DNA of 64,000 bases from a virus. Position 1 is the first letter of the stretch; each line of letters begins with the position of its first letter. The stretch covers positions 1 through 64,000 of the IMG/VR virus record IMGVR_UViG_3300028534_000004; one strand, 5' to 3'. Below, piece by piece: positions 2,238 through 54,500 of the stretch. The notes under the pieces are model-generated. The model was not told the DNA's origin. It made no database searches and saw nothing but the letters and a program-made list of their open reading frames with translations. The translations under genes were made by a program, and so were the position numbers.

Positions 2238-2245
2238 CAAATATA
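2238..2245 (-). promoter_or_regulatory. Bacteroidota-type -7 promoter box (TAnnTTTG)
   Basis: Minus strand reads TATATTTG, 11 nt upstream of the ATG at 2226. Confidence 0.4.
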
Positions 2246-2368
2246 AGAATAAAATTTAAAGTTTACAATGTGGATGTTAAATGTTGGTGTTTGTGTGAGT
2301 GTATATGAAAAAGCCCCCGCCTCTTTTTTAAAATCCGAAAGTATCCCCCCCCCATGACAAAAACACAA

Positions 2369-2382
2369 CCATAAGAACTAGT
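2369..2382 (+). promoter_or_regulatory. phage promoter-like box, copy 1 (CCATAAGAACTAgT)
   Basis: One of five copies of the same 13-14 nt box (2369, 2856, 4045, 4688, 5762). This copy lies 11 nt upstream of the ATG at 2394. Confidence 0.5.
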
Positions 2383-2393
2383 AACTTAACCTA

Positions 2394-2678
2394 ATGTCGA
2401 CACAGGAACATAGTTTCCTGTCCATAGCAGATTTTAAGTCTGCTATAGGAACGAATAAGCTTGTTATCAAGCATATTCGTCCCAAGGACGGGAAAGATTA
2501 TGTTGCTGTGATAGACGACAAAGACGAAATAGTAGGATTTGCGAATCCTGCTATTGACTGGACTAACATTAGTCCAGACAAACTCGTCGTTGTTGTCTAT
2601 CATGACGTTGACGAAGATGGTAATTCAACAGAGAATTACTATCTGACTCTTCGTCGTGATGTCCTTGCAGTATTGTAA
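2394..2678 (+). CDS. hypothetical early protein
   Basis: 94-aa ORF starting 11 nt after box copy 1. The coding sequence contains perfect hairpins, e.g. ATAGCAGA/TCTGCTAT at 2424-2446 and CTGGACTAA/TTAGTCCAG at 2558-2577. Confidence 0.6.
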   Translation: MSTQEHSFLSIADFKSAIGTNKLVIKHIRPKDGKDYVAVIDDKDEIVGFANPAIDWTNISPDKLVVVVYHDVDEDGNSTENYYLTLRRDVLAVL

Positions 2679-2855
2679 GGTAATCACAGCGACATGACCC
2701 TTGGTGTTGGGGGATATACGACACAAAATCCCATGCTGCTATAGCGTGGTCTGTGTGAGCAGGGTTGAAGTCACTAAAAGGCTTTCCGCAGCATCTCACA
2801 ATACAGACCACGCAGGGAATTCTCTGTTATGGCTTTGTATCTTTTTTGAAGACCA

Positions 2856-2869
2856 CCATAAGAACTAAT
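2856..2869 (+). promoter_or_regulatory. phage promoter-like box, copy 2 (CCATAAGAACTAAT)
   Basis: Exact box 11 nt upstream of the ATG at 2881 and directly after a T-run (2842-2847). Confidence 0.5.
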
Positions 2870-2880
2870 TACAAAGTCTA

Positions 2881-2961
2881 ATGCTGTTTACAATTGTATT
2901 CGGCTTTGTTGCTATGGCAGGTTTTGCTGCCATAACAGCAATATTGCAAGGTGAAGAATAG
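2881..2961 (+). CDS. 26-aa hydrophobic peptide (MLFTIVFGFVAMAGFAAITAILQGEE), putative
   Basis: ATG placed relative to the box as in copy 1. Encodes a single transmembrane-like helix. Below the ORF-track size cutoff. Confidence 0.35.
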   Translation: MLFTIVFGFVAMAGFAAITAILQGEE

Positions 2962-3519
2962 TAACCTTGCAACATATCCGACTAGGGGTAGCTAGTTTCG
3001 GATATGGCCAACGGCATTGGCGCAAATCTACCCATTAGCCTAAAGGCAGCGCCCTTCTTATCCTGCAAGAAGTAAAATAAAGCAGGTTTCCCGTGAGTCT
3101 AGCACTCTTGACGGGAGTAAATAAAAAGTATTAGAGTGCCTTCCGCCAGGAAGTAAAAAGGGTTGTAGAGTTGGCTGCTCTACGTAAAATTATGCTCCTG
3201 TCACAGTAACCTATACTCTACTGTGATTAACAGGTAATCATAGGTTGTCCTAAAGCATGGCCTTGGACGTAAAACATAGGCTTTTTTTAATAACCGTAAC
3301 CACTAACGGTATATAAATAAGTGGTTCAGCTACGTGCTTTGTCCTCTTTCTGGTAGCTGGTAAAATATAGGTTAAAGGGGTCGTAGTAGGTTGTCCTTTT
3401 CCTGCTACATAAAAGAAGGAAAAAGGTCGTGTTCAGGTGATTCCCAGCCTGACACGTAAAAGATAGAAATGGGATACAAGGCAGAGAAGTGAAATAGCGA
3501 CTCTGCCTTGTTTTTCTTT
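2962..3519 (+). ncRNA. ORF-free tandem stem-loop array (structured RNA or long 3' UTR)
   Basis: About 560 nt with no credible ORF and at least 12 consecutive stem-loops, e.g. GTAGAG/CTCTAC at 3165-3183, TCACAGTA/TACTGTGA and CAGCTAC/GTAGCTG. Nine of them are followed directly by GTAAAA or a near variant (3072, 3117, 3153, 3184, 3234, 3269, 3360, 3409, 3456). Confidence 0.6.
3477..3519 (+). terminator. intrinsic terminator
   Basis: 10-bp stem CAAGGCAGAG (3477-3486) / CTCTGCCTTG (3501-3510) followed by TTTTTCTTT. Confidence 0.75.
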
Positions 3520-3543
3520 ATAAAAAAATTAAAAAACAATATT

Positions 3544-3762
3544 ATGACAGGAAAAGAAATCCTTGAAACCCTTATTTCTAAGGGTTTCAAAATTTCAGGA
3601 GATGTAGCAATATCTCCTGAAGACAAATTTCGCATTCACCTCGAAAGAGGTGAGTGTGGAATAAGACCATACATGTTTAAGATTAAAAGAGGCGTAAAAA
3701 TAAGAATTTACGCCTCTACAGATACCGTAAACTGGTTAGACGTTCTTATGGAATACGTCTAA
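3544..3762 (+). CDS. hypothetical early protein (72 aa from ATG 3544; the track ORF starts at TTG 3508 inside the terminator stem)
   Basis: ORF in which five perfect hairpins of 7-11 bp (3563-3590, 3595-3620, 3636-3653, 3688-3717, 3734-3764) cover more than half of the coding sequence. Confidence 0.5.
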   Translation: MTGKEILETLISKGFKISGDVAISPEDKFRIHLERGECGIRPYMFKIKRGVKIRIYASTDTVNWLDVLMEYV

Positions 3763-3836
3763 CCATATGTTATTCCCCACACAGTACGGCGCTATATAAA
3801 TACGCTGTATGGGGACTATAAGCGCCAGTATAACAT

Positions 3837-3932
3837 CCCACAGATACACAGCGAGGATTGTAATCACAATCTGATGACCTGTGTTGATGGACAGCCAATG
3901 GAAAGTAGGTTCAACTCCTACCTGCGGGACCA
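3837..3932 (+). tRNA. tRNA-like element with encoded CCA (not a canonical tRNA)
   Basis: Acceptor stem CCCACAG (3837-3843) / CTGCGGG (3922-3928) with one A-C mismatch. Canonical T arm GTAGG-TTCAACT-CCTAC (3905-3921), discriminator A and CCA (3930-3932). The 61 nt in between have no D arm and no 7-nt anticodon loop; they form an ACACAG/CTGTGT stem enclosing GATTGT-AATC-ACAATC. Confidence 0.55.
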
Positions 3933-3955
3933 TAAAGCCCCTTAATCGGGGAAGT

Positions 3956-4017
3956 CCTACACAGAAAAACTATCAGCCCAAGAGGTAGATAGTCACTGCT
4001 GTGTAGGTCGTTTTTTT
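3956..4017 (+). terminator. intrinsic terminator (long hairpin)
   Basis: CCTACACAG (3956-3964) / CTGTGTAGG (3999-4007), with an inner ACTATC/GATAGT stem, followed by TCG and T7 (4011-4017). Confidence 0.7.
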
Positions 4018-4044
4018 ATACGGTTTTCTTTCTTTTTTATTTCA

Positions 4045-4058
4045 CCATAAGAACTAAT
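4045..4058 (+). promoter_or_regulatory. phage promoter-like box, copy 3 (CCATAAGAACTAAT)
   Basis: Exact box directly after the terminator at 3956-4017 and 21 nt upstream of the ATG at 4080. Confidence 0.5.
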
Positions 4059-4079
4059 AACTAAATTAAAGTTATACCC

Positions 4080-4238
4080 ATGTTCCCGGGTATCAAAATT
4101 CATTGTTTCGCAGACAATGAAGCCTATTTTAGGCATAGGGAAAACACGGTAGAAGTGGAGATGTGCTTACATCAAGAGCTTCTACTAAGCCGTGGGGAGG
4201 ACAAAAGCTTTAGCGAGCTACAAATCTCCCAGTGTTGA
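4080..4238 (+). CDS. 52-aa hypothetical peptide, putative
   Basis: First ATG after box copy 3 (MFPGIKIHCFADNEAYFRHRENTVEVEM...). Short, with no motif, so it could instead be part of the structured RNA. Confidence 0.3.
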   Translation: MFPGIKIHCFADNEAYFRHRENTVEVEMCLHQELLLSRGEDKSFSELQISQC

Positions 4239-4678
4239 TAGTAAAGAGTTACTGCGCTAACAGTAACGTGGTTGCTATCAAAATAAGAGTTTTATCACTT
4301 TCTCTTATAATGCGAATTATCTCACCCCAGAAAAATGGTCTGGGTTAAAAAAGTGAACTTCCGAATAGGGAAGGGTTTAGCTACAACGGGTAATACTGTT
4401 GTAGTCCCGAAAGGGTGCTATTGGATTCTGTCCCAGCAGATGAAAATAGTAATGTGAATTCTAGGGTCTTGCGCAAGCTACTAGAAGGAGCATAGAACCT
4501 ATCGGAAGTAATGAGGTTGGCAACCTACCAAATTGCCTTAACCTAAGTGGTGAAGGGACTTACCATCCCGTTGGCAGCCTTCTTCAGTGAATCTGATTGA
4601 AGTATCACCACATGCGAGTTGAGACCTTGTCATAAAACTCGCTTAAGGAATCGCCTCTATGGCGGTTCCTTATTTTTT
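4239..4678 (+). ncRNA. ORF-free structured region (second stem-loop block)
   Basis: About 440 nt with no ORF of 60 aa or more on the + strand. Contains nested hairpins, e.g. TTGATAG..GTTACTG-CGCTAA-CAGTAAC..CTATCAA (4234-4280), ATAAGAG/CTCTTAT, CTACAAC/GTTGTAG, CCC-GAAA-GGG and GCGAGTT/AACTCGC. Confidence 0.5.
4645..4678 (+). terminator. intrinsic terminator
   Basis: 11-bp stem AAGGAATCGCC / GGCGGTTCCTT (one G-U pair) with loop TCTAT, followed by ATTTTTT. Confidence 0.75.
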
Positions 4679-4687
4679 ATAATACCA

Positions 4688-4701
4688 ACATAAGAACTAA
4701 T
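4688..4701 (+). promoter_or_regulatory. phage promoter-like box, copy 4 (aCATAAGAACTAAT)
   Basis: Differs from the other copies at one base. Sits directly after the terminator at 4645-4678 and 39 nt upstream of the ATG at 4741. Confidence 0.45.
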
Positions 4702-4740
4702 TGCTAAGTTTAAGTTTTAAACTTTAAAATTTATCTAACT

Positions 4741-5700
4741 ATGGGTCAAGATATCAAAGTGAGCGCAAGAATGCGCTCACAAAAAAGAGAAATTGCTCTG
4801 GAGGTGGACTCCAGAGCACATTCCGCTATTGAAAGTAGCGGAATTAAATTCAAGGAAGGCATCGAAAATGCCTTCTGCGAATTCTCTAGGAATTTCCCTG
4901 GAGAGGAATTTGCAGTAGAAACTGCAAGTTCAAAAGATTTCGAGCCTGACTATGAATTTAAGGCTCGATTAAAAAACGGAGAATATTTTAATATTCTCCA
5001 AAATTACACCCCAAGCGATGCATGGGATGATGAAAAAGAAGGTGACGAAATCACCTTTGAATATTTGAACGCGTATGAGTTTCACAAGAACTCATATATA
5101 ACAATGTTCAAATATAAAAATTCAGACCTAATTTATTACTCAGGTCTGAGTAAAAATGAAGTTAAACTCCTTATGGAGTTACTTCAACAGGAATTTTCGC
5201 TTGATTATGTAACGTCAAACGAAATAAACCAAGTATTAGTCAAAGATACTTGGGAAAAATTTTCTTCGCTACCAACAGAAGTTCAACAAATGTTAGGAGT
5301 GAAATACGAATTTGTTCTGGAAGAAATTCCAGAACAAATAAGAAGAGTATTAAATACTCTTCCTTACTATCTGGGAGGAGAACCAGATAATAAGAAATAT
5401 TTCGGTATTGATAAAAAAATCGTAGCCGAAATAGAAAATAAAAAAATAGACGCAAATAAATTTTGCATCTATTCAAAAAACGGAGAGAAGTACATCTTCT
5501 GCTCCGACGAGTATTATCCCAAGCTTGCTTATGCAGTCGCTTGGGGAGTTATTGACTTATCAGAGTATAAGTACTCTGACAAAAATGAATTCTTCCAGCA
5601 AAAATATGAAAAGTGGCTGGAAGAAAACAATTACTCGCGTATGAGAGAATACGCAGGAATAGGATGTAGAAAAATCGAATACTTCAATCTCTACATCTAA
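4741..5700 (+). CDS. hypothetical early protein (319 aa)
   Basis: A 960-nt ORF is too long to arise by chance in stop-rich DNA. No recognisable motif. The coding sequence carries at least 15 perfect stems of 7 bp or more. Confidence 0.75.
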   Translation: MGQDIKVSARMRSQKREIALEVDSRAHSAIESSGIKFKEGIENAFCEFSRNFPGEEFAVETASSKDFEPDYEFKARLKNGEYFNILQNYTPSDAWDDEKEGDEITFEYLNAYEFHKNSYITMFKYKNSDLIYYSGLSKNEVKLLMELLQQEFSLDYVTSNEINQVLVKDTWEKFSSLPTEVQQMLGVKYEFVLEEIPEQIRRVLNTLPYYLGGEPDNKKYFGIDKKIVAEIENKKIDANKFCIYSKNGEKYIFCSDEYYPKLAYAVAWGVIDLSEYKYSDKNEFFQQKYEKWLEENNYSRMREYAGIGCRKIEYFNLYI

Positions 5701-5706
5701 TTCGAT

Positions 5707-5756
5707 AAAACCGTATTATACATATTATATATATAATACGGTTTTATTTTCTTTTG
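5707..5756 (+). terminator. intrinsic terminator
   Basis: 14-bp perfect stem AAAACCGTATTATA (5707-5720) / TATAATACGGTTTT (5732-5745) followed by ATTTTCTTTT. Confidence 0.8.
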
Positions 5757-5761
5757 AACTA

Positions 5762-5775
5762 CCATAAGAACTAAT
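5762..5775 (+). promoter_or_regulatory. phage promoter-like box, copy 5 (CCATAAGAACTAAT)
   Basis: Exact box directly after the terminator at 5707-5756 and 37 nt upstream of the ATG at 5813. Confidence 0.5.
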
Positions 5776-5812
5776 AACGAAAGCAAAGTTAAAAATTTTA
5801 AAACTAGCTAAA

Positions 5813-6526
5813 ATGAAAAAAGTTATCGTATCTCCGGGAAATATCCCGGGGATTAAACACATCTATGAAACTGAGACTTCTTATGAAGTCTCAAAGAGTT
5901 TTGACCGCTGGCAATTGAAAGTCAGCACAAAGGTCAAAGCTAAATGGGTTCGTAAAAACGAATCCAAAGTTTCAGACTTGTTCTCAGGTAATTCTGAGGG
6001 CAAACTCGGAAACAAAGACGAATACGTCTACAACTCCTGGAGACCGTTGTCTCCAGAGATAGGCAAGAAACTTGACTCGAAGGAGATTACTCCTGAGAAA
6101 ATAGTCGAGCTTGCTGAAAAAGACGAGTTGATGACACTTATGGTGATTTCTCACAAAGGAATTATCATGACAGTTAAAGACAAAGCTCGTCTTAACTATG
6201 CCAAACGTGAATCTCCCGAAGCTTATCAGGAAGCTATCGAGGAGATTAACAAGAACCAATACTTCGAAGTAGTTGACGAAACTACTGGCGAGGTCAGAAG
6301 TTCTTGGTCTACTAAAGTAGTTGCTTCTGCTAAGAAGTACTCTACTGGCCTTGCAGAAGCCTTTGGCGTTGAGGTTTTCGAAAAGAAATGGGTAACTTCT
6401 ACTTCAGGTATCAAAGTATACCTGAGTGACGAATTTCCTCATGTGCTCTCTCTTGAGAAAACTGAGGAAAGTCATAAGAAAGAACTCGATTTGCAACCTG
6501 ACTCAGGTGACGAACTCGGGTTCTAA
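5813..6526 (+). CDS. hypothetical early protein with an SSB-like acidic C-terminal tip (…PDSGDELGF)
   Basis: 237-aa ORF. The C-terminus resembles the SSB-Ct motif (D-D-D-I-P-F) and the tail of the SSB candidate at 22418..23125 (…DSDELPF). Contains several perfect hairpins, e.g. TGAGACTTC/GAAGTCTCA and CTGGAGAC/GTCTCCAG. Confidence 0.7.
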   Translation: MKKVIVSPGNIPGIKHIYETETSYEVSKSFDRWQLKVSTKVKAKWVRKNESKVSDLFSGNSEGKLGNKDEYVYNSWRPLSPEIGKKLDSKEITPEKIVELAEKDELMTLMVISHKGIIMTVKDKARLNYAKRESPEAYQEAIEEINKNQYFEVVDETTGEVRSSWSTKVVASAKKYSTGLAEAFGVEVFEKKWVTSTSGIKVYLSDEFPHVLSLEKTEESHKKELDLQPDSGDELGF

Positions 6527-6535
6527 AGGAAATTA

Positions 6536-6674
6536 GGGGTATTTTGACGTAGAATAGAGTCGTGTACTCTTGTCAGAATACCCCTTCTCCTCCTACTCCC
6601 AACTCAAAAAATCACAACAAAAGACTTTCATGTCTTTTAATATAGCGTTATTGCTTCGTGATTTTTTTTGAGTT
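6536..6674 (+). other. two long nested inverted repeats in an intergenic region
   Basis: GGGGTATTTTGAC (6536-6548) / GTCAGAATACCCC (6572-6584). Then AACTCAAAAAATCAC (6601-6615) / GTGATTTTTTTTGAGTT (6658-6674), which encloses AAAAGAC-TTTCAT-GTCTTTT. Confidence 0.6.
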
Positions 6675-6702
6675 ACAACTTCTTCTTCGAAGAAGGTAAT
6701 TC

Positions 6703-7005
6703 TTGAATGAGAAATTTTATCAAAATAAAATATTTGAAATGCAATTTATAATCATAGAAACAATAGAACACCCTGACAAACACAAGACCGTTTATTACGG
6801 TCCTTATAAAAGTCGGGATAGAGCAAAATATATCAGGAATCAATTAAAGGAAAAAATTGAGTTTCCTGATTATCATCTACTAGTAAATTTGTACACTGGT
6901 TTAGATGATTTGGTAATGCTCTGGGAGAACAAATACAATCCCAGTGTCAAGGCTACTGTAAAATACAGCATTGAAGAACTAAAAAAGGCAAATTATGACA
7001 CCTAA
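6703..7005 (+). CDS. hypothetical protein
   Basis: 100-aa ORF from TTG 6703; the first in-frame ATG is at 6739. No motif. Confidence 0.5.
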   Translation: MNEKFYQNKIFEMQFIIIETIEHPDKHKTVYYGPYKSRDRAKYIRNQLKEKIEFPDYHLLVNLYTGLDDLVMLWENKYNPSVKATVKYSIEELKKANYDT

Positions 7006-7228
7006 AGCGGTGTAAAAACAGTTTTTCAATATAAAGCGTCTTCGACGCTGAAAAACTTCTTGAAGTTTTTACAAGAACGAATTTTTTAGGAGAAATGTTG
7101 CATAAAATCTCCTAAAGAATGTTAAAAGATATTAAACCCTGAAACATGGGTTAGGAGTACCGTTTTATCTCATAAACCTGTGTCCACTCGGTACTCCTTA
7201 TAAACTGAAACTCAAAAATTAAACTAAT

Positions 7229-11072: not shown

Positions 11073-11210
11073 GGTAGGGTGACGAAATGGTAGACGTAAC
11101 CTTGGGATAGCATCCCAACCCTTACAGCGGGAAAGAGGTGCTGTTGCAAGCATTATGCGATGCATGCTAAACTTAATGCTGAAGTACAGGTTCGAATCCT
11201 GTCCCTACCA
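11073..11210 (+). tRNA. oversized tRNA-like gene (138 nt), anticodon unresolved
   Basis: Acceptor GGTAGGG / CCCTACC, class-II-like D arm (TG ACG AAATGGTAGA CGT) and T arm ACAGG-TTCGAAT-CCTGT. There are 87 nt between the D and T arms, and I can fold no 5-bp/7-nt anticodon arm. Confidence 0.5.
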
Positions 11211-34653: not shown

Positions 34654-34681
34654 AAGAGGGGAAGCGGCTTCCCCTTTTTTT
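34652..34681. terminator. bidirectional terminator at the convergence of rightward and leftward gene blocks
   Basis: AAAAGA-GGGGAAGC-G-GCTTCCCC-TTTTTTT. It sits between the stop at 34653 (+) and the stop at 34680 (-). Confidence 0.75.
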
Positions 34682-42548: not shown

Positions 42549-42550
42549 AA

Positions 42551-45500
42551 TTAACAATTTAAATCGTTTAGTTCATCTATATTAAAATACTCGTCAAAGT
42601 TAAAATTATTTTCGATTATATCCGAAAGAGGTTCGCGATGTTTATCAGTTAATTTCTTATATAAACTGTTTGCTTTTGTAGCATAAGCCATATCGCCCAT
42701 AATTTTTTTATTTGTTTCGATATAACTAGGATTAATAGTTTCATAGGCATGGATTACATCTATAATTTGCTCAATAGCAGTAAATTTATTTGTTAGGTCT
42801 ATATTTTCTTTAATAGCAACTTCAACATTATTGTATTCTTTACCATTATAAACGAACCCTTTTTCCGGTGATACTTTATCTTTCTTTATAGGCTCTACTT
42901 CAGCTTCGGGTTTATTAATAACTTTTAACTTCATCATATCTTTAATGAAGTCTGTTTTAGGGAATAAACCCTTAATCATTGCATCTTTTGCAGCTTCAGC
43001 AGAATCGTATAAATTAGATTTAATTAGACGTCCTGATTCATAATGAATAGCTCTATAATGACCTGTTTTATCTTTAAAGATTAAGAAATGAGCGTCTAGT
43101 GTAGGATGCTTAATTATTTCACCTTCTATAGTCTCTATTGTATTTAAGTTTCTAATAAGTTTCGCGGTTACTTTTTTGTTTGAAACATTATTAGATATAG
43201 CTGTTTTAGGAGTAGGATTCTCTATAGGACTATTCTCCTCGAAGATATAATCCTGTCTATAAGAAGGTAATGTATTATCTATAAATACTAAAGCTCTTTT
43301 GGCACTTTCTCTTAATAAGGTACCTTCTTTAAATATTCCTAAACTTTCTAACAAATCCATTATTATATCTTTAAACTTAGACAATAGATTTTGTTTTTCA
43401 TTATAAGGTATACTGGCTAATTTCTCTTGAAACAGAGGACGCGTGAATATACCGGTAATAAACTCTTCAATAGTTGCTAAATGGTAGTATGCCTTTTCTT
43501 TTTGATTGAAAGTTATTCCTTCTTCTTTATTAGATAGTCTCTTGTACTTTTCTTTCATAGATTTATAAGCAGGGTCATCTTTAAAAGCTTCAACAGCTTT
43601 GTTATATACTTCGTATAAATCTTTAGCATACTTAGGAGCTCCTTGTTTTATTTGAGTTTTACCTATTTCTTCATCATAATAGAAATAATCGCTTAAGTAC
43701 TCTACACTTACAGCATGAAGGTACTCATGTAAAAATACTCTAGCTTGGTCTTTATCATCCAGACTAAGAAAAGTATCTGTAAGAGCTATTTTTCCTTCTG
43801 AGTAAACTGCAACAAAATCATTGGATTTTACTTTATAAACAGGAATATCGAGTTTAATTCTATCGGTTAAAGCTTCTAGAATATCGCTTATTCTATATTC
43901 TTGAATGTTTTTACGAATATAATGAAGAGCTACTTCATCTGCTGTTTTACCATTTTTCTTTGAAGTAGGCTCAGATTTAGGAGGTTCTACTTTTTCTTTA
44001 TTTTCTTCTTGTAAATAATCCTTTATTTTCTTCATTACTTCTCTATCAGCGTCATATTGTTTGATAGCCCAATGAGATAATACAGGTATTTCTTTTCCTT
44101 TGTAGAATAATCTGAATTTGGAATCTGTTTTAGAATCGTACATTGAAGCATAAGGAATATTGGAACCTTCCCATAATTGTTTAGCTTCAGAAGCGTCTTT
44201 AACTCTTGTAGCTTTTTCCGGATTATTCTGAAAGAATTGAGTTACAAATGGTATTCCTTCTGTTTCTCTTTCACTATTGAACAATACGTCGTTTAATTGA
44301 TTACTAAAATTAAGATTTGACAGATTAACACTAGTCATTTTAAACCAACTAAGAGGTATATATTTGACAATTTCTACGGCTCCTTGTACAGCATTATTCA
44401 ATAAAGAATAAGTTATTAAATCATTTGCCAAATCTCTAGTAGTATAAAAAGGTTCTATTTTATATTCGTAAACTGTTTCAAATCCGGTATCCTTTAAAGT
44501 AGGATACTTTTTAGTTAGAGTATTTTTATTATGTTTTGCTACAAAACGTGCTTTGTATTTTTTTCTTCCATAACTAAATTTTACAATTTTTTCGTTACCA
44601 AAAGCATCTATAGGATTTTTAGATAGTATAGTAGTTTTACCTTCTATTAACTCTTTTTCAAATTCTTCTGAAGAAATCTCTTTATAAGAAGAATTATTGT
44701 AGTTATAAGAAGGTAATTCTAAATTAGCTTCGATTAACTCATCTAAAGCTGTATATAGAACATCTTCATATAGTAAGCTATTGTTAGCGTTAATAAATTT
44801 AATTAAACTAGGTGTTCCGTCTCTGTTAATATCAAAAGTTAATCTTGACAAAAGTGGGTTATCAAAAATTTGATGTTTTTGAATTTTTAATTCGTAAAGG
44901 TACCTGGCTAAAGACATATTAGTATCTGTATCAATATCTAATTTAGCTCTTTGAACAGCTACATCTCCTTTGGTTAATCCTATTTTGGAAGAAGAATATA
45001 TGAACCGTTTCAGTTCTTTTAGAATATCTTTTTTTAATTGTTTCCCTTGAGCACTAGTACTAGTATCCGTATAACTACTTATTTCTTCATATAACATGTT
45101 AAATTCTTGTTGATACTGTATAAAGAACTCGCTAAACAACGACTCATTCAATCCTAAAGATTTTCCTATCATATAAGCTACAGGATTAGCAACACGCGAA
45201 TAATGTTCTAATCCAAAAGCTTCCAGATTAACATCTTCGAATTTTGTAAAGTTAGTGAATAAGTTATCAAATCCTTTGCCTGATACATTATCTAGAGTGT
45301 TACTTAAATCGATTATATCTTCCATAGAACCTTTAAACTTATTATTTATACCAAATAACTTAGTCAAAGGCCTAACTTCTTCATCAGCTATCCCTTTTAA
45401 GAAATTAAAAGCTCTCAATATTCTAGCTTGAAATAATCTGTCTTTAGATGTTCCTATATTGTCATATAAATCTTTTACTGAAAAAGTAAAAGCATTAGAA

Positions 45501-48500
45501 TTATCATTTAAAGCTTGATATTCTTCAGGTGAAAGATTTAAGTTCTTCATAGCATTAGAATAAGCTATTGCATGTTTATCGCCGTATTCAGTATTAGTAT
45601 TAGAATCAAGGTTCATCATCTCTTCTACATACTTCTTAATTATAGGCTGTGACAAAAAGAAATAAGGAATAGAAATGATTTCATTTCCTACTAAGGCTTG
45701 GTCATAACCCAATAGCGCCATTAAAGAATCTACAGAGATAGTGTATTTATTTACATTAACACGACCTAATATTTGAACCTTCATATCATCGGTACCGGTA
45801 TTAACTCTTTCATCTAATACCTCAGCAATAGTCCTATTACCATCTAAAGTTCTTTGATTACCTATTTTACCATTAGATACTATTCTTACTCTACCTCCTT
45901 CAAAGTCTTCACCTAGAAATACAATAGGTTTTTCTTTTAACTCCTTAATAGTTATCTTGTTAGCCTGCTGTGTTAAAGACAAGAAAGTTACTGCTTGAGC
46001 GTATACTCCAATAGCCATTTTACCAGAGCTACCTCTCTGCATAGTGTCCCTTTGATAATCTATATCCGCGAAGCCTAAATAAGTTTTAGAGCTGTCTTTA
46101 TTTAACTTCTCTAATAAACTTGCTTGTTCTTTAGCAAATTCAATTGATAGTACTTTATTTATTTTATCCTGTACCTCGTTATCGGGAGAAGATAATACCG
46201 AATGATGTACTTTGATTATTTCATTATCTATAGTTTTACTATATAAATCTTTTGCTTCTTCTAGTTTCTCCTCTATTTCTTTTACTTTATCTTTTTCTTT
46301 TTTCTTTTTGTATTTAACTCTTTGTTTTTCTAAACTTTTAATTTTATCTTCTAATTTCTCTAAATTCTCTCCTTTACCTACTTTTTTAATTCTCCCTTCT
46401 TCATCTAACTCGTGCCAATAGAAATAAGCAAATTCTTTATCTACGTCAAAGTCTAATCCTTTCTGAGGCAATATTGTATTAGGAACAACTATTATATCTC
46501 CCTGTATCTCAGGTATAAAACCTGCTATCTCTACATCAGACATAGATACGTGTGATGAAGTAGGAATACGGAAAGTTATCATACTAAGAAGTTCATCGTC
46601 TATCATTCCTTCTATTAGAACTTTTCTACCGTTTTCATACTCCCAATATTTACCTTTATTTTTTTCACCAAAAATATCTACTAAATTACCTTCTTTATCT
46701 TTAAACCTTGAAGGTACAAATACTTGAACCTTCTTAAGTTTATTTCCTTCTTTATGAGTTACCTGTAATCCTTTTTCTTTGTCATAATATTTAGTGTAGA
46801 TAATATCATCGCGATAATTTTCTTCATTAGTTAAACTCCAACCTTCGGCTGTACTAGCTACATAAGAATAACCCGGCATCTTTAATTTTATAATGGCATT
46901 ACGTATTAAAGAAATAGCAACACTTTCTAATTTTTCTGCCTGAGGTAATAACCATAAAGGAACGTCGAATATAGGTTTACCATTTACAATTTTAATTTTT
47001 AATTGTTCAAGGTCTTTGGTATACATTCCTCTACTTTCTGCTTCTTCGATAAGCAAAGATTTTAACTTATAAGCTAATTGTTTATGGTCAGATAAATTCT
47101 TTAGTCCTAATTTGTCTAATAACAACTTCTCATTTAAATCAATGCGTTTAGCAAATAAAGTGTTGTAATATATAGCAAGAGCTTCGCCGGTAACTTTATT
47201 ACCGTTATATTCAAATTCTTTGTTAATCATATCGTTACCAAACAATTCTTTCATCATTTGGGTACCGAGAGTAACCATATTAGGTTTATGTTTACCTGCT
47301 TTATAAGGTATTTCTTGTTGTATCTTGAAGTATTCTCTATTAAGCTCTATACTATGATTAGCTAAATGAGTACTAGTTAGATTTTTAATTCTTCCGTCAG
47401 GAGTAAATATCTTGAGAGCTTTCTTTAAAGCTCCTACTTTATTAGCTGTCTGGAAAGAAGCTCTAACAGTTCTGTGACTACCTTTTTCTATTTCGCTTTC
47501 TTCAAGTTCTTCCATTGCTCTACGTAACTTATCTATCTCTTTACCCGCTGTTACTTGAGGTATCAGTGGTATAGAAGAAGATTTGATATAAATCACATGA
47601 TTAGTATCGTTGTCTTCGTCTAACATAGAACCACCGTATACCGGTTTAAGAGGTTGTAATACTACGTCTAAATCATCTTTAGTTAACAAATATTCATCCG
47701 GTATAGGCTTATTTTGTTTTTCAAATTGTCTTTGTTTCTTTATTTTTCCTTTTATATCCGTGTACTGTTTCTCTGTCAACTTACCATATCTATACAATAC
47801 ATTAATATGTTCTGATAAAGTAGTGAACTCTTGAGCATCAGTACTTTCTATTTCTAAGAAATCACTAATAACATTATACCTTTTTAAATTCTTTAGTATT
47901 TTATCCTTTTGAGATTTAAGCTCTGTAATTTCTTCTTCTGATAATACTTCAGTATTTAACTCTACATTAGATAAATGAGTATCTATAATTTTTAGATTTT
48001 CTATTTCTTTAGCAGCTTTTCTTGCCTCCTTAACTCCATAGTGTAATTCTATTAAGTACTCCAAGTTAGCAGCATTGGTTTCTGCATCTTGTAGCATTAT
48101 CTGTAAGTATTTTTCTTTGTTGGACTCATACGCTTTTAAACCGGGAGCAATTAACATTGCCATACGCTTAGAAGCATTTACATTAATATTATTAAACAAA
48201 TCATCGTATATATCAGGGTTTTTAACTCTATATGGTATAGGTTCATTATTCTTATCTACTTCAAAGTTTTTTGAATCAACATCTTTATCTTTACCATAAT
48301 AAGCCAAATCTCCGGCAAATATTTGATTAATGTTTGTTAAACCCACAAATGTATTAATTACGTAATCGGCAGTAGCTACATAAGCCAATTCTCTTTCGTC
48401 ATTTATATCTAACTCCTTAAGAAAATTCTGGTCCATATAATTAATCTTAAATTCTCCGTCTTCATTTATATTGAAGAAACCATTTTGAACAAATTCAGAG

Positions 48501-51500
48501 AATTTATCATTTATCTTATTTACAAATAGTCTTTCTATTTCTGCTAGAATATCACTAATATGGTTCCTTTCGAAATCTTCTATATTATCATATTGTAACA
48601 TTAACTCTTGGAAACTTTGTCCTCCTTTACGAAACTTATTTAGTCCCGGTAAAATAGTAAATAGTTTAGAAAAGGTATCATAGCCTTTAATTCCTGTTTC
48701 TACTTCAGATTTTATATTCTTATGGATACGTTTAATTTCAGGTCTTACTGTTTGATAATAGAGTGCTGTTAACAGAGATTTGTTTATTTTATCGATGTTA
48801 CCTTCTCTGAATTCAAAATGATTATATGTAATTTTAAAACCTACATTATCTAATATTAACTGCTGAGTTTTATCAGAGAAAGTAGGAAACATGGTTCTTA
48901 TATGTCTTAGTTCTACTCCATGATATATTCCTGTCATAGTTCTGGCACTTTTTAAATCTTGTAAAAGTACCATTGCTATTAAGTCATAATCAGTAGGAGA
49001 TTGGTCCGTAATTTTATTACTACCTCTGGTTTTCTTCCCTAGTTCTTTCAAAGCATCTAATGCGATATGAGATAATGCAAATCCTTCTTTAAATTTATCA
49101 TCTTCTTGAAGTTTTCTTAAAATTAGATTTTCAGATGTTAAACTAAGGTTTAACAGCTTTTGTCTATAATCTTCATCGTTCTTAATCTTATAAGCCATAT
49201 CGCTAGTATAATTAGGTAAATTGATAAGGTAAATATTCTTTTTACCGTCATTAATACTAGTAGAGCTAACCTGATTAGAATACTTAGATTCTATAGCTGC
49301 TAGCTTTAATCCATAAGTACTCATAATTGCACTTAATAGAGGTAAACTCTCAGCAGATTTACCCTTTTTATAACTCTCTATATTATCTTCTAAATTGTAC
49401 AACAAAGAAATAATTTTTCCTAAAGGTGAAATATTTCCATTGGGATTTAATAAACCTTTTAGTTTAATGAACTTCACTTTATTATTATAGAAAATTTTTA
49501 AGCCTTTGTCATTAAGTTCTTCTAATGTATCCGTAGATAAATGTACTCCTATATTTTCGAAAGCAGCTTTAACTTTCTGAATACTAATTTCTCCCTTTAC
49601 ATTGGTTTGCCCTGTATAAGTAATATTACCTTTATCGTCCTTAGTTATAACTATTCTAAATTTCTTAGTAGAATTACGTAAAGTAACAGAAGCTTTAGAA
49701 CCGGGTTTTAGTTTATCAATTATATCTTTAAATGGTTTTAATTTATCTCCGTATAATTTACCTCCTTTTCCGCGAGCCATAATCAACATCTCTTTGTACA
49801 GAGAAACATCTACTTCTACATTACCGTAGTCCTCAGGAGGTAACATATCCTCGAATTGTTTAATAGCTTCTTTAAGTTTATCTTCGTTAATGTAGAATTT
49901 ACCTTCTGTGTATCTAAATAAATCAGATAATAAAAAGCTCTGGTCCCAGTCATTTAAAATACGACGCTTGACACTATTACTATTAGTATCAAATAACATT
50001 AAGTTGTAGGTATTTCTTTTAAAATCTTTACCAAACATAGGACTCTTCATATTAATAAAATGTTTGGCAAAGTTTACTACGAATTGAATCTTAGTCTGTT
50101 CATCAGTGTTGTCTAATCTTTTTACCAATTCTTCCACCCAAGGATGGGCTGCTTTTGCAGAAAGTAATCTGGCTTTCATTTCTTCATAAGTAGGAGCTAC
50201 ATCGCCATAAGCTAAAATAATCTCAGCTACTTTATCATATATATAATCGAAGTCATGGAATAAAGGAAGTTCAAAAGCTCCTTTTACCTGCTGACCTGTT
50301 TTATCCAATTGTTTTAGACCTGAAAAGAAACGGCGTAACTTATAAGGTAAACGTTCTTTACCGTTTTCTTCTAATACACTCTTGCCTAGTTCTTTAGTTC
50401 TACCTTCAATATCTTCTTGGTCTAAAGAATCCTCATCATTTCTACGTTCATCATCTGTTAAATCTTCAGATATTTCAAGAATTGTAGCATTTTCATCAAT
50501 TTTCTTCTCTACGATACCTGTACGTAATTTAACTTCTTTATAAGCTAACTTAGCTATCTTATTTTTGTTTTTAATAATAGTCTCAAGTTTAGCTAGTTCT
50601 TGTTGTTTAACTTTAACAAGGGTTAATATTTTCTCTTTTTGAGTTGTAGTTAAATTATCCTTATGTCTTTTAAGTACGGAAATAGAATTATTAATCGTAT
50701 TATTTATCGACTCTATAGACGGTTCTAATAGTTTTTCAAAATCATCAGTTAATTTAGACATTATATCTTTCTTAGATATATATTGTCCTTTGTCAAATTC
50801 TCTTAAGAATGAGTTATACATATAAGTAACTACAGTATGTAACTCTATAGTTGTTAAGCCTTCTATCTCGTTGTAACTTTGTCTAATCTTCTCAAATTCA
50901 TCTTCATCAATAAATCTAGGTTCTCTGAAGGAAATTTCATTTTTGTTATCTTCTATTTCATTCAAAATATTTTCTAAGTCTTCGTCTATATCATCGGATA
51001 ATTTTACTTCTGTTACACTAGTTTCTATAGAATTAGCTTGTTCTAAAATATTTAGTAGCTCTTCGTCATCTTCTACAGGAGTAGTATCATTAGTGGTATC
51101 GGTATTAGCACTAATATCTTTTAGTTCATCCTTAGCTTTTTTATTTTCGTACTCCGTATTAATTTCTTCTTCTGACTTTACTTCTTCCTTTTTCTTTAAT
51201 TTAGAAGTTAAATTAGAAGTTTTATCTTTTATCTTTTTACCTAAAGGTATTTTATCAAAACGTTTATCGAGATTATCTTGGTCAGTGCTATTAAATTCAA
51301 TTCGCGGTTGAGTTCTGGTTATATACTTAGGACTATTCTTAGTACCAATATTAAACGATTTAATATTAGTAAAGAAGTTGTTCTTTAGTATATCTTGTAA
51401 CGTGTATTTATCATTTACACTATAACCTCCGGTAGCATCAATAAATGAAAACTTCTTATTACTATATTCTTGTAATGCTCTTGCATTAGTAGTAACACGT

Positions 51501-54500
51501 AAAGAAGTTCCGTACTTATTAAAGAACCTGTCTACGGAGCTCATTATATGATTATCTTTAGTTCTTTTATTTAGAACAATTATTTCTTCTGACTGAGAAG
51601 AAGCTAAAACTACATTACCTCCTAATATTACTATGATAGGTAAATCTTTATTATATCCCTCACCTCTTCTCATAGATTGTTTAATATTACCTACTACCTC
51701 TTTTACCCTAGCATTAAAATCTACTCCTTCACCTATAGTCTCTATATAAGCATGAGTAAGAGAACGGATATAATTTATAAGCCCGGTAGTTACACTAATA
51801 TCTCCTACATAGGGCATAAGTTGTTTTATAATCTCACTATGGATATTATTCTTATTAGTAAGATATATCTTGATAGCGTTTTGTACAGAATCTATAATTC
51901 CGGTATCCATAAGTACATTAGGCCTGATTACTTTAAACAGGCGATATAATTTGTACTCTTTTCCATTTTTGTATTCGTACCCTATAAAGCGTAATTCAAC
52001 GTTAGAGCCATTAGGAATACTCTTGCCTGATGTATTTTGAATTACAATTCTATCATCTTCGAACGTAGTTATATTATCTGTCAAGGTATATTTTTTACCA
52101 TTCAGTAAAATATCACCGTTTATATAATAACTAACTTGTGTATGAGGAGCATACTCAGATAAGGCACCTAACATGTCTTCATCTACAGAGTATACAGAAC
52201 TACCTCCTACGTTTGTTATCTTAATAATATGGTCTTGATTCTTATTTAATTTATCAAGAGTATACTTTCTAAATAAATAAGTCTTTTTACGCATATTATT
52301 AATTAGCGTTCTTGTTTCTTCGGGATTACCTTCATGTCCTATGTTCTTAGGGTTATACCATGAAGTAGAATGGATAAAGAATATTTGTTCTCCTGTATCA
52401 GGGTCTACTGCTACAAGAGGTATATTATTGATATAATCTTCATCTGAAGGTCTTAATCTATTTTTACCAACATATTCTCCGAATGTCATTATTTGTTTGG
52501 TGCCATCATCGTTATAGACACTTATCATTACATTCTCATAGTCCTCGGCAATCTTCACTTTAAATTCTCTACCGGGTTTCATGTAATCATAATCTACACA
52601 CTTTTCAGAATCTATATCAGTATTATCTATAATCTGTCCATTTCTATCTATAAATTGAAATGCTGCTTTCATAGATTCTGTTACTGTTTTAATACCTTCT
52701 ACTTTTCGCTCATCAGGTTCTGTTACAGGAGAAGTGTCTATATCTTCTTGATTTTCTTCAATAACTTTAGCTTCTTCTTCGCCACTATAAAGAGCACTTA
52801 ATTCTGAAATTTTACTTTGTGTTTCTTTAAACGGGTCAAAAACAGAATTATATATTTTATAATAATCTTCTTTAGGCATACCGTTACCTTCCCATCCTAT
52901 TACATACAAAGGAAAGTTTTTATCAATTTGTTCTACATCATTAATTTCTTTTACCTTATTAAGGTAATCTTCAAATGTAGGTTTTCTTCCTAGTTCTTTT
53001 TCTAAAAACTGAATTTCTTTACCTATTAGATTAATTAATAAGGCTTTGTCCTCTTCTGTCAATTCCCTTTCTAAACTTTTGGGTTCAAATACCAAACCAT
53101 CTCCTAAAGCATCTTCATCTATTACTTCATCTACAACATCGTCTTTTTTATCTAAATCTTTGACTTCCGTATCTGATGCTGCTTCTTCTGTAGTTTCAGG
53201 TTGAACTCTCTTTCCTAACTCTTTTATTGCTTCCTGAGTTTTAGTTAGTTCTTCCTTAGTTTCATCTTTTGATTCCTCTTTAACAGGTTCCTTTTTATTT
53301 ATTTTATTCCTGGCAGCTTCGGCTTTTTCTTTAGCCTCTTTTAATTTTTCTAAATGTTCATCTTTTATCTTAAGAGCTTCTAGGATGCTATCTGTTTTCT
53401 TTAATCTATTTTGTAAAGCAATGTTGTCTTCTTTTAATTCATTAAGAATTCTTATTTGTTCTTTGTAATAGGCGATTTTCTTACGATATTTTTTCTTATT
53501 TACTTTTGATAGATGTTCTTTTTTATTCTGTAAAAGACGTATGTTCTTTTGTAGTTTTGTTTTAGACTCTTTTAATTTTTCTTCTAATTGTTTCTTAGTA
53601 TAGTTTTCCGATTCAACTAAAAACTCTTTAGTATTAAGAATAGCATCTACAGCTTGAAATAAATGTAAACTTTCTCGTTCTATCTCATGATAAGATTTAG
53701 CAGGATTAACAAAAAAGGAATTGGTCTTTATAACGGTTTTCGATGTTCCTTCTTTAACAACTTGTTCTTTTGTAGGTTCTTTATCTTGACCTTTCTGTTC
53801 TACTAAATCAGGTTCGTCTTTATTGAGGTCCTTATTGTTTTTCATTCCCTCAACAATATCATCTATTACTTTTTCTTGATGTCTAGGGTCTACCCATTTG
53901 TTATACAGACGATTACTTTCGTCTTTATTAAATTCAAGATTATATTTATCAAAATGATTTTTAATTAAGGAAAGTTTTGCATCATTATCATAGTCTACCT
54001 TCTTTTTTAAGTTGTTGTAAACTTCATTTAAATTCTCATTTTTACTTACTTCATCAAAAGTAGTTTCTAACTCTTTCCTTTTTTCCTTGAAGTACTTTAA
54101 CTTTTTAACTTTACCTTTAAGCTCATCTATGTTTAACTCTTTGGTAGTAGTTTTTGAAAGTTGTTCAAAATCTTCTTCGTCTAATAATTTATTTATCTGT
54201 TTATTAGTTTCTTTTTCGTTTACTTTTGAATTTTTATTTATAGAAGTTTTTAACTCTGATTTAAGTTTATCTATCATTACATCCAGAGCTGCTGCTTTAG
54301 AATGTAAACGTAATAGTTCTAATTCCTCGGGATTAGTAGTAAATTGAGTATATTGTTCTTCTATAACGTTACCAAGTTCTTCATCTTGTTTACCATATTC
54401 CTTTCTTAAGAAATCATAGTAAACAACATTAGTAAGACTATTTTTATCTACTTTATCTCTATGTGTTTCGTAACTTTCACTTAACTTATCCAAGTCCTTT

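Follow-up and report, generated by a model that had tools for sequence, protein, structure and literature searches.

What use could a phage have for a block of small genes written almost entirely in hairpins? This question is raised by the 64,000-nucleotide DNA window analysed here, positions 1 to 64,000 of IMG/VR virus record IMGVR_UViG_3300028534_000004, in which short perfect inverted repeats crowd a block reported at 2394-7228 and run straight through its open reading frames (ORFs). Judged by its virion genes, the source phage is crAss-like, with a double-stranded DNA genome of 86 kb, and the hairpin block adjoins a divergent junction (2227-2393) on its right side. The hairpin saturation is real and extreme, and within the window the surplus of structure falls mainly on genuine ORFs.

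Stems were counted as maximal perfect Watson-Crick stems with loops of 3-13 nt, and 300 dinucleotide shuffles were made of the block. The counts are as follows.

2394-7228, stems of at least 7 bp: 44 observed; 3.81±1.87 in dinucleotide shuffles, maximum 11
2394-7228, stems of at least 8 bp: 28 observed; 1.00±0.96 in dinucleotide shuffles, maximum 4
ORF 4741-5700, stems of at least 7 bp: 17 observed; 0.85 in dinucleotide shuffles; 1.70 in synonymous-codon shuffles, maximum 6
ORF 4741-5700, stems of at least 8 bp: 12 observed; 0.22 in dinucleotide shuffles; 0.74 in synonymous-codon shuffles, maximum 3
ORF 3544-3762, stems of at least 7 bp: 5 observed; 0.17 in dinucleotide shuffles; 0.72 in synonymous-codon shuffles, maximum 3

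Since stems are lost when synonymous codons are shuffled, they hinge on which of the codons are used. In windows of 200 nt, RNAfold gave z-scores of about 0 left of 2400, -12.5 at 2401-2600 and about -6 to -10 through the ORFs of the block, then about -2.3 after 6600 and about -2 beyond 7200, with a block mean of -7.3. The folding-energy gain over shuffled sequence (MFED) was 60% for the block, compared to 19-24% elsewhere in the window. GC content was also raised in the block, to 0.38-0.41 from about 0.30 outside it. Unrelated viral loci totalling 1.5 Mb had 0.45 stems of at least 8 bp per kb, and their richest 2-kb window held 8 of them, compared to 17 in the hairpin block. When windows of 3 kb were compared, the block had 32 stems where about 2.6 are expected and was the extreme outlier among 105 loci, as it was in the roughly 2.7 Mb of comparison loci scanned. 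Hairpin clusters in three comparison loci (L048, L193 and L164) were rejected as AT-only low-complexity sequence, and that of a fourth (L130) as a local cluster of 200 nt only.

These results bear out the original prediction of hairpins far above chance inside genuine coding sequence (44 stems vs 3.8±1.9; z of -6 to -12.5 in the block ORFs vs about 0 left of 2400), as well as its remark that the block is less AT-rich than its surroundings. It had counted at least 15 stems of 7 bp or more and at least 11 of 8 bp or more in ORF 4741-5700, where we counted 17 and 12. The hairpins it gave as examples are all correctly placed, although the stem at 5310-5339 has 13 bp, not 11, and the one at 5590-5625 has 10 bp with a 16-nt loop. 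In ORF 3544-3762 the five stems it described, covering more than half of the ORF, are present (about 61% covered), but their lengths are 12, 10, 7, 11 and 11 bp, a range of 7-12 and not 7-11 bp.

The anatomy of the block is set by a repeated motif. Its core, CATAAGAACTA, occurs in five exact copies with starts at 2370, 2857, 4046, 4689 and 5763, all on the plus strand, and no copy was found in the 64-kb window outside the hairpin block; alignment gave an extended consensus of about 20 nt, nCACCATAAGAACTAATAAC. All five copies lie 24-52 nt upstream of a start codon, and copies 2-5 are each located about 10 nt downstream of a hairpin plus T-run. With such hairpins before the motif copies and start codons after them, the block can be divided into five transcription units, U1 to U5, whose features are listed here from left to right, followed by the units themselves.

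2366..2389, plus strand: P1, candidate early promoter or transcription start element (core 2370-2380), with the ATG 24 nt after the core start
2394..2678, plus strand: ORF94, hairpin-saturated early gene; 4 stems of at least 7 bp vs 0.18 in shuffles, z -12.5 (2401-2600)
2853..2876, plus strand: P2, unit-start motif, 24 nt from core start to ATG, as in P1
2881..2961, plus strand: ORF26, hydrophobic micropeptide of 26 amino acids (MLFTIVFGFVAMAGFAAITAILQGEE); positive coding score, two hairpins of 8-9 bp
2962..3520, plus strand: noncoding RNA stretch of U2; no coding signal, MFED 18%, terminator stem 3478-3512 plus T-run
3544..3762, plus strand: ORF72, hairpin-saturated early gene with no motif of its own; 5 stems vs 0.17, z -8.5, positive coding score
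3763..4040, plus strand: noncoding stretch with a possible tRNA-like element and a terminator (stem 3956-4007 plus T-run)
4042..4065, plus strand: P3, unit-start motif, exact copy
4066..4680, plus strand: noncoding RNA of unit 3, about 600 nt; strong terminator 4644-4672 plus TTTTTT, MFED 21% (4239-4688)
4685..4708, plus strand: P4, unit-start motif, exact copy
4741..5700, plus strand: ORF319, the most hairpin-dense gene; 17 stems, MFED 95%, one remote homologue
5705..5757, plus strand: U4 terminator, a 16-bp stem followed by TTTTCTTTT
5759..5782, plus strand: P5, unit-start motif, exact copy
5813..6526, plus strand: ORF237, hairpin-rich early ORFan; MFED 62%, mean z -7.8, positive coding score
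6535..6675, plus strand: 3′ hairpins and terminator of U5, right end of the block (predicted fold; z drop after 6600)
U1, plus strand: P1, ORF94 and a structured 3′ region, ending in a weak hairpin plus T-run at about 2828-2850
U2, plus strand: P2, ORF26, a 560-nt noncoding RNA, the internal terminator 3478-3512, ORF72 and a noncoding stretch, ending in a terminator at about 3956-4020
U3, plus strand: P3 and about 600 nt of noncoding RNA, ending in terminator 4644-4672
U4, plus strand: P4 and ORF319, ending in the 16-bp terminator 5705-5747
U5, plus strand: P5 and ORF237, ending in a terminator at about 6603-6672

The hairpin-dense zone, 2394 to about 6690, matches the extent of these five units: z is about 0 directly left of P1 and drops past the U5 terminator. 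The collapse of hairpin density had been placed at 7229, about 550 nt too far right, since it falls after the terminator at about 6672-6690. The unit-start motif does not form an inverted repeat, and the predicted fold leaves its surroundings free of pairing. The form of an intrinsic terminator, a GC-rich stem-loop with a T-run directly behind it, is limited to hairpins at unit ends; 40 of the 42 perfect hairpins carry no T-rich tail, so that the internal hairpins are unlike terminators. The ATG of ORF26 lies exactly 24 nt from the P2 core start, and both this spacing and the CTAATG context are the same as in ORF94 after P1. The intergenic region at the divergent junction holds, just upstream of P1, nine consecutive C (2340-2348, plus strand) that follow GCCCCCGCC, an oddity for a genome with 30% GC.

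Where the hairpins sit was examined with a codon model trained on the phage's own long genes. ORF94, ORF26, ORF72, ORF319, ORF237 and ORF88 scored as coding in frame 0 only, while the noncoding stretches and antisense ORFs scored as noncoding. Within the block, perfect stems occurred at 13.7 per kb of coding and 4.9 per kb of noncoding sequence, and MFED, 95% in ORF319 and 62% in ORF237, was 18-21% in the noncoding stretches of the same five units and 19-24% in the rest of the genome. The hairpins had been described as tiled regardless of coding status, which these numbers contradict. There are 31 perfect stems inside ORFs, at a spacing of about 35 nt in ORF319. Start-codon windows are open, with a paired probability of 0.35 from -18 to +9 compared to 0.61-0.77 just downstream, and the first hairpin starts 8-18 nt past the ATG. 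The stems show no preference for codon register (10/12/8), and some overlap residues conserved with the ORF319 homologue, namely FEPD (4940-4968) and GEPD (5368-5389). The two stems of ORF26 are located at 2913-2934 and 2944-2972, the second extending beyond the stop codon. ORF319 is certainly a real protein, judging by a full-length homologue, P0002, with 30% identity (E = 4e-32); its AlphaFold model was unusable (predicted local distance difference test score, pLDDT, 37.5). No homologue of ORF237 was found besides itself.

Noncoding parts of the units have features of their own. Six copies of GTAAAA occur within 390 nt (3072-3461, plus strand) of the U2 noncoding RNA, compared to about 0.4 expected; they lie mostly directly 3′ of a hairpin, at spacings of 81, 31, 85, 91 and 96 nt, and near-variants are present at about 3117 (GTAAAT) and about 3409 (CATAAAA). 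The series could be a protein-binding array, an array of processing sites or an RNA sponge. Downstream of ORF72, at about 3836-3932 (plus strand), an acceptor-like stem of 7 bp (CCCACAG/CUGCGGG, one mismatch) and a canonical T-arm (GUAGG-UUCAACU-CCUAC) are followed by an encoded ACCA. This is weakly suggestive of a tRNA-like element, which could be a processing signal for RNase P or the CCA enzyme; no Rfam match was obtained, ARAGORN called it at a relaxed threshold only, and its fold z is -1.8. Unit 3 is probably a dedicated noncoding RNA, and ORF52 within it (4080-4238) fails the codon-model test. Paralogy of the noncoding stretches 2670-2860 and 3850-4048 was considered and was not convincing.

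The hairpins are 17-43 nt long with stems of 7-16 bp, and a loop of 4 nt is the most frequent (11 of 42), loops of 3 nt being found in 2 of 42. They are all different, and the only direct-repeat family in the block is the unit-start motif. No tandem arrays were found in the block, and Rfam searches of it at a permissive threshold gave sub-threshold noise only (the best CRISPR-DR match reached 21.8 bits, where the threshold is 35). As neither a palindrome family nor an Rfam family was found, repeated palindromic elements (REP/BIME, MITE ends, CRISPR repeats) were rejected, and the property under selection would be folding itself. The hairpins have A-rich flanks to the left and to the right, and control genes are just as A-rich in their unpaired sequence; for both reasons the idea that the hairpins are antisense terminators was also rejected.

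Close relatives of the phage were found neither by megablast against phages nor by scanning viral contigs for ORF319 and ORF237. The ORF319 product is identical on an 86,466-bp metagenome contig (ENA ERZ27262685, k141_758500), which the first 30 bases checked also match, and the lineage is represented by this one genome, from a metagenome assembly. The single ORF319 homologue found is located at 32-979 of a 4.2-kb contig (L143), as the first called gene, 31 nt from one end. It has 3 perfect stems of at least 7 bp and an MFED of 39%, with z of -6.5, -4.3, -0.9 and -6.7, compared to an MFED of 6% and z of about 0 in the rest of that contig. Codon alignment of this one pair gave 6 shared base pairs vs 2.1±3.3 by chance, and 13.8% of random shifts did as well; hairpin centres coincided in 9 of 27 cases vs 5.8 expected. 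The structure may be a trait of the family, or of the genomic position, of ORF319-type early genes.

A distant crAss-like relative, the 91.5-kb IMG/VR 3300019776_000550 (L160), shares only an RNase H-like gene with the window. Its architecture is the same, with small ORFs and DNA polymerase on one side of a divergent junction and the RNase H-like gene, terminase and portal on the other. In its own block (2400-8600, sense on the minus strand) there are 36 stems of at least 7 bp vs 9.1±3.2 and 21 of at least 8 bp vs 2.8±1.6. Its flanks have no more stems than chance gives, and the z-scores of -3 to -12 end exactly at the junction. Loci anchored on the phrog_16390 neighbour gene also have 2-3 times the expected stems 4-10 kb upstream of that gene, in the early region. 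In the sequences compared, it is the quantity of folding that appears to recur in relatives; individual stems do not. The original prediction had asked whether homologues keep the stems: the ORF319 homologue is unusually folded, but its stems are at other positions, and two crAss-like phages discussed below, phi14:2 and FpV4, are without the feature. Two related environmental crAss-like contigs, L198 (4801-4820) and L226 (5843-5862), have an identical hairpin, AGAGAGTGTTTCCACTCTCT, near the divergent junction, in early regions that are otherwise mosaic with patchy identity of 70-90%.

What transcribes the block is suggested by the genes around it. The leftward operon on the other side of the junction, on the minus strand, continues into large virion-type ORFs, and the rightward genes extend to about 34 kb. 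The virion genes used for classification are these.

34680-42557, minus strand: virion protein of 2625 amino acids with NADAR and polyvalent-protein ADP-ribosyltransferase (ART-PolyVal) domains
42551..56026, minus strand: virion protein of 4491 amino acids with a crAss-type RNA polymerase module, DFDVD at residue 3192
60325-63927, minus strand: ORF of 1200 amino acids matching the Pfam family crAss_MUZ (Crassvirus muzzle family, 1.7e-25)

Both giant ORFs match PHROG families of crAss-like virion proteins, and the segment around DFDVD matches annotated crAss-like RNA polymerase genes including phi14:2 g066. The window thus has the two marks of a crAss-like phage, a muzzle protein together with a giant protein of the virion that bears the DFDxD polymerase motif, and the presence of a virion RNA polymerase, supposed earlier, is supported. 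A sequence search of the giant virion proteins against PDB gave no match, and the nearest cultured relatives, FpV4-type phages of Flavobacterium psychrophilum, share only 27-38% amino-acid identity. The 4491-amino-acid ORF is about twice the size of phi14:2 gp66 (2180 amino acids), and the 2625-amino-acid protein may be an ejected effector of anti-defence or host takeover.

The crAss-type polymerase is presumably the transcriber of the hairpin block. Indirect support comes from the phage-specific start motif and from the lack of a host-type box on the plus strand: the leftward operon carries the canonical -7 box of Bacteroidetes, TATATTTG (2238-2245, minus strand), and no such box (TAnnTTTG) was found on the plus strand at 2246-6883. 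Sigma-70-like sites in the block were not clearly enriched (26 vs 17.5±5.4). We propose nCACCATAAGAACTAATAAC as a candidate promoter of the crAss-type virion RNA polymerase, new in that the early transcripts of phi14:2 are reported, in the study of that phage, to share no upstream motif. L160, FpV4 and phi14:2 were also examined for a repeated start motif, and none was found. A scan of IMG/VR with the 14-mer CCATAAGAACTAAT returned single chance matches or tandem repeats inside coding sequence (L027), which were rejected as relatives; the match in L006 was judged by its spacing to be a tandem repeat.

Whether the hairpins act as RNA or as DNA is harder to decide. The excess structure is strand-symmetric Watson-Crick pairing: mismatches flanking the stems were G·T in 7 cases vs A·C in 4, the G·U fraction of local minimum-energy structures was 0.085 on the plus strand vs 0.079 on the minus strand, and stems including G·U numbered 37 vs 32, a sense bias below that of ordinary genes. 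Sense and antisense z were -5.2 and -4.4 in the block and -2.5 and -1.6 in control genes, the same gap. A strand asymmetry was thus not borne out, nor was the enrichment for stable RNA tetraloops from which the original prediction had argued for the RNA level, as the 42 loops include GAAA twice, AGAA twice, CGAAA twice and no clear UUCG. In indirect favour of the RNA level, the hairpins respect units, leaders and start codons, avoid T-tails and, in the window, concentrate where ribosomes travel. These arguments fall short of proof because hairpins selected in DNA would also avoid translation-initiation regions.

We favour, tentatively and with somewhat less confidence than doubt, the explanation that the hairpins are generic folding armour on early mRNAs, similar to the ordered RNA structure on a genome scale (GORS) of RNA viruses. 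The block would be an early regulon of five rightward units, each from a nCACCATAAGAACTAATAAC start to a hairpin plus T-run and presumably transcribed by the virion polymerase. The choice of amino acids and synonymous codons would make the mRNAs of ORF94, ORF26, ORF72, ORF319 and ORF237 continuous rows of local hairpins, leaving only the leader and start-codon window unfolded and short A-rich linkers as the sole single-stranded remainder; the amount of folding would count, not any single stem. Early mRNAs would thereby become poor substrates for host endoribonucleases, toxin or abortive-infection RNases and RNA-guided nucleases, a protection most needed while a polymerase uncoupled from ribosomes makes them. 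Local hairpins, unlike long-range folds, re-form behind each ribosome, which would explain why the armour is concentrated in ORFs. By analogy, phi14:2 lends some support, since its virion polymerase makes the early transcripts and long noncoding RNAs abound in its early region. RNA shielding, one of the roles considered in the original prediction, remains the best reading of the block, although the tetraloop argument, the independence from coding and the analogies to phage N4 and plasmid leading regions that accompanied it are not supported.

Several points weigh against this explanation. Noncoding parts of the L160 block are as structured as its ORFs, and the argument from ORF specificity loses force. 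In phi14:2 and FpV4 the early regions are without excess structure (z about -1), so that crAss-like early expression does not generally need hairpins. Pairing is perfect and strand-symmetric, with no sense-strand bias beyond that of ordinary genes, which leaves room for action at the DNA level, and the loops are not enriched for stable RNA tetraloops. The A-rich single-stranded linkers persist and could still be cut. As regards the Cas13b and decoy double-stranded RNA roles raised in the original prediction, the stems of the block, at 7-16 bp, fall short of the roughly 20 bp needed by RNase III and sensors of double-stranded RNA.

An alternative that we consider unlikely is that the hairpins serve the mechanics of transcription. 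The virion polymerase would need hairpins in the nascent RNA to strip the transcript from a template that is single-stranded or re-anneals poorly, and so to prevent RNA:DNA hybrids; these hairpins might in addition work as a ratchet that counters backtracking as the polymerase draws the genome into the cell. The extent of the block, which is that of the motif-driven units, agrees with this, as do the fast-folding local hairpins with 4-nt loops. The polymerase gp66 of phi14:2 is efficient on single-stranded or denatured DNA and weak or inactive on native double-stranded DNA, and the N4 virion polymerase forms RNA:DNA hybrids on single-stranded templates, needs host single-stranded DNA-binding protein (SSB) for displacement and also transports the genome into the cell (PMC4496689). 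A need at the level of the polymerase should, however, cover every transcribed base, and the explanation is weakened by the ordinary structure of the noncoding RNA in the same five units (MFED 18-21%, with 19-24% for the genome). Moreover, phi14:2 and FpV4 have a homologous polymerase module and early regions without excess structure.

Control of translation, which we regard as quite unlikely, would have the ORF-wide hairpins throttle elongation or keep ribosomes off all but the open start site, resulting in low and accurate expression of potentially toxic host-takeover proteins, as would fit a host phylum without Shine-Dalgarno pairing. ORF-wide structure tracks translation efficiency in bacteria, and in the window the excess is centred on ORFs, with open start windows and hairpins beginning 8-18 nt after the ATG. 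However, a weak initiation region would be far cheaper than recoding whole genes, there is no reason for such a need in early genes alone, and in L160 the noncoding parts are equally structured.

A role in DNA, by which small hairpins or cruciforms would extrude from the inverted repeats when the DNA is supercoiled or transiently unwound, keeping the early region partly single-stranded and usable by a polymerase that prefers single-stranded DNA, appears decidedly unlikely. The perfect Watson-Crick and strand-symmetric stems, which show no G·U signature of RNA-level selection, are in agreement with it, as are the GC raised across the block and the preference of the crAss-type polymerase for single-stranded DNA; in N4, small promoter hairpins extrude under supercoiling, helped by Mg2+ and SSB (PMC4496689). 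On the other hand, it does not predict the concentration in ORFs, the open start windows, the unstructured motif regions or the respect for unit boundaries, and the feature is missing in phi14:2 and FpV4. Short stems of 7-9 bp whose loops reach 13 nt are also poor candidates for extrusion, and hairpins in the template strand would obstruct the polymerase too.

That the hairpins have no function, being due to chance, composition, an assembly artefact or a mutational by-product (palindromes formed by template switching), is highly improbable: 11 of 13 internal mismatches in extended stems are of transition type, as for slowly decaying perfect palindromes, and the lineage is a single genome from a metagenome assembly, but 44 stems were counted vs 3.8±1.9 with no dinucleotide or synonymous shuffle near, the block is an extreme outlier in about 2.7 Mb of comparison loci, its sharp boundaries match transcription units, the feature recurs at the same genomic position in non-homologous L160 sequence and in the ORF319 homologue, and an assembler with k = 141 cannot create inverted repeats of 7-16 bp.

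Should the hairpins prove to be functional armour, this would be, as far as we have searched, the first known case of a DNA phage that protects or enables its earliest transcripts by rewriting whole genes into secondary structure; literature searches turned up no account of early genes saturated with hairpins, either in crAss-like phages or in other DNA phages. It would be a layer of the arms race that protein-based annotation misses, and would extend the GORS concept from vertebrate RNA viruses to bacterial viruses, a far more tractable system. The wider proposal, an environmental crAss-like lineage whose hairpin-armoured early transcriptome counters RNA-directed immunity (Cas13, type III CRISPR, abortive-infection or toxin RNases) or R-loops, together with nCACCATAAGAACTAATAAC as the first promoter consensus of a crAss-type virion polymerase, is possible though doubtful as a whole. 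The candidate promoter, of a kind that the phi14:2 study did not detect, can be directly tested in vitro, and ORF319 (MFED 95%), its homologue (39%) and unstructured neighbours provide a natural matched gene set for relating mRNA structure to decay, translation and R-loops.

Two neighbouring features are noted in passing. Directly right of the block, at 7229-9340 (plus strand), a DUF8224 protein of 703 amino acids is widespread. Its homologues with E no higher than 1e-50 number at least 1677 and include proteins from phages of Bacillus, Salmonella, Klebsiella, Cellulophaga and others, and none in the collections is above 50% identity to the window copy. At 11073-11210 (plus strand), beside three ordinary phage tRNAs (Ile, Met, Leu), an Rfam tRNA match of 36.7 bits spans 138 nt without an ARAGORN call; it may represent a tRNA that is interrupted or contains an intron.

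Compared to known systems, the block shares only parts with each. N4 has three promoter hairpins of conserved sequence, with a stem of 5-7 bp and a 3-nt loop. Like N4, the window has a virion-delivered polymerase of a kind preferring single-stranded DNA and hairpins tied to early transcription; displacing the transcript is a recognised problem for the N4 enzyme. However, the N4 hairpins lie upstream of units and are read as DNA, whereas the block has about 40 hairpins, unrelated to one another, within its ORFs, and its presumed polymerase belongs to the two-barrel DFDxD type and is not a T7-like single-subunit enzyme. The single-stranded DNA promoters of plasmid leading regions (Frpo/ssi) are long, imperfect, noncoding hairpins whose folding restores -35 and -10 boxes, unlike the short hairpins of the window, which are mostly in ORFs. 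The early-region analogy to N4 and that to plasmids, both suggested earlier, are not supported, as the hairpins are all different, lie in ORFs and carry no promoter-like boxes. The unit ends, with a hairpin plus T-run on the plus strand, are like intrinsic terminators or 3′ stem-loops.

The early region of phi14:2, whose early genes are transcribed by the virion polymerase gp66, is also rich in long noncoding RNAs, and the window resembles it in its small early ORFs, the long noncoding stretches between them and the crAss-type virion polymerase; units 2 and 3 resemble the phi14:2 noncoding RNAs as counterparts. Unlike the window with its five exact motif copies, phi14:2 has no common motif upstream of early transcripts and no excess structure.

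The comparison with GORS goes furthest. In RNA viruses with GORS, hundreds of consecutive stem-loops run through coding sequence and are read as a shield for the RNA; relatives retain the overall degree of folding with little conservation of where the stems lie, and reported MFED values are 7-23%, obtained with a shuffling method that differs from ours (PMC7642675). Here the carrier is the early mRNAs of a double-stranded DNA phage and not an RNA virus genome, 4.3 kb is covered and not the whole genome, the stems are short and perfect, and the excess is much larger, at 60-95% over a background of 19-24%, again with the difference in shuffling methods; the block has no known link to persistence or innate sensing. 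What it has in common with GORS is the long runs of consecutive stem-loops in coding sequence, not confined to untranslated regions or regulatory sites, with folding energy well above shuffled controls; the one homologue pair, of ORF319 and L143, would be consistent with a conserved quantity of folding at unconserved positions.

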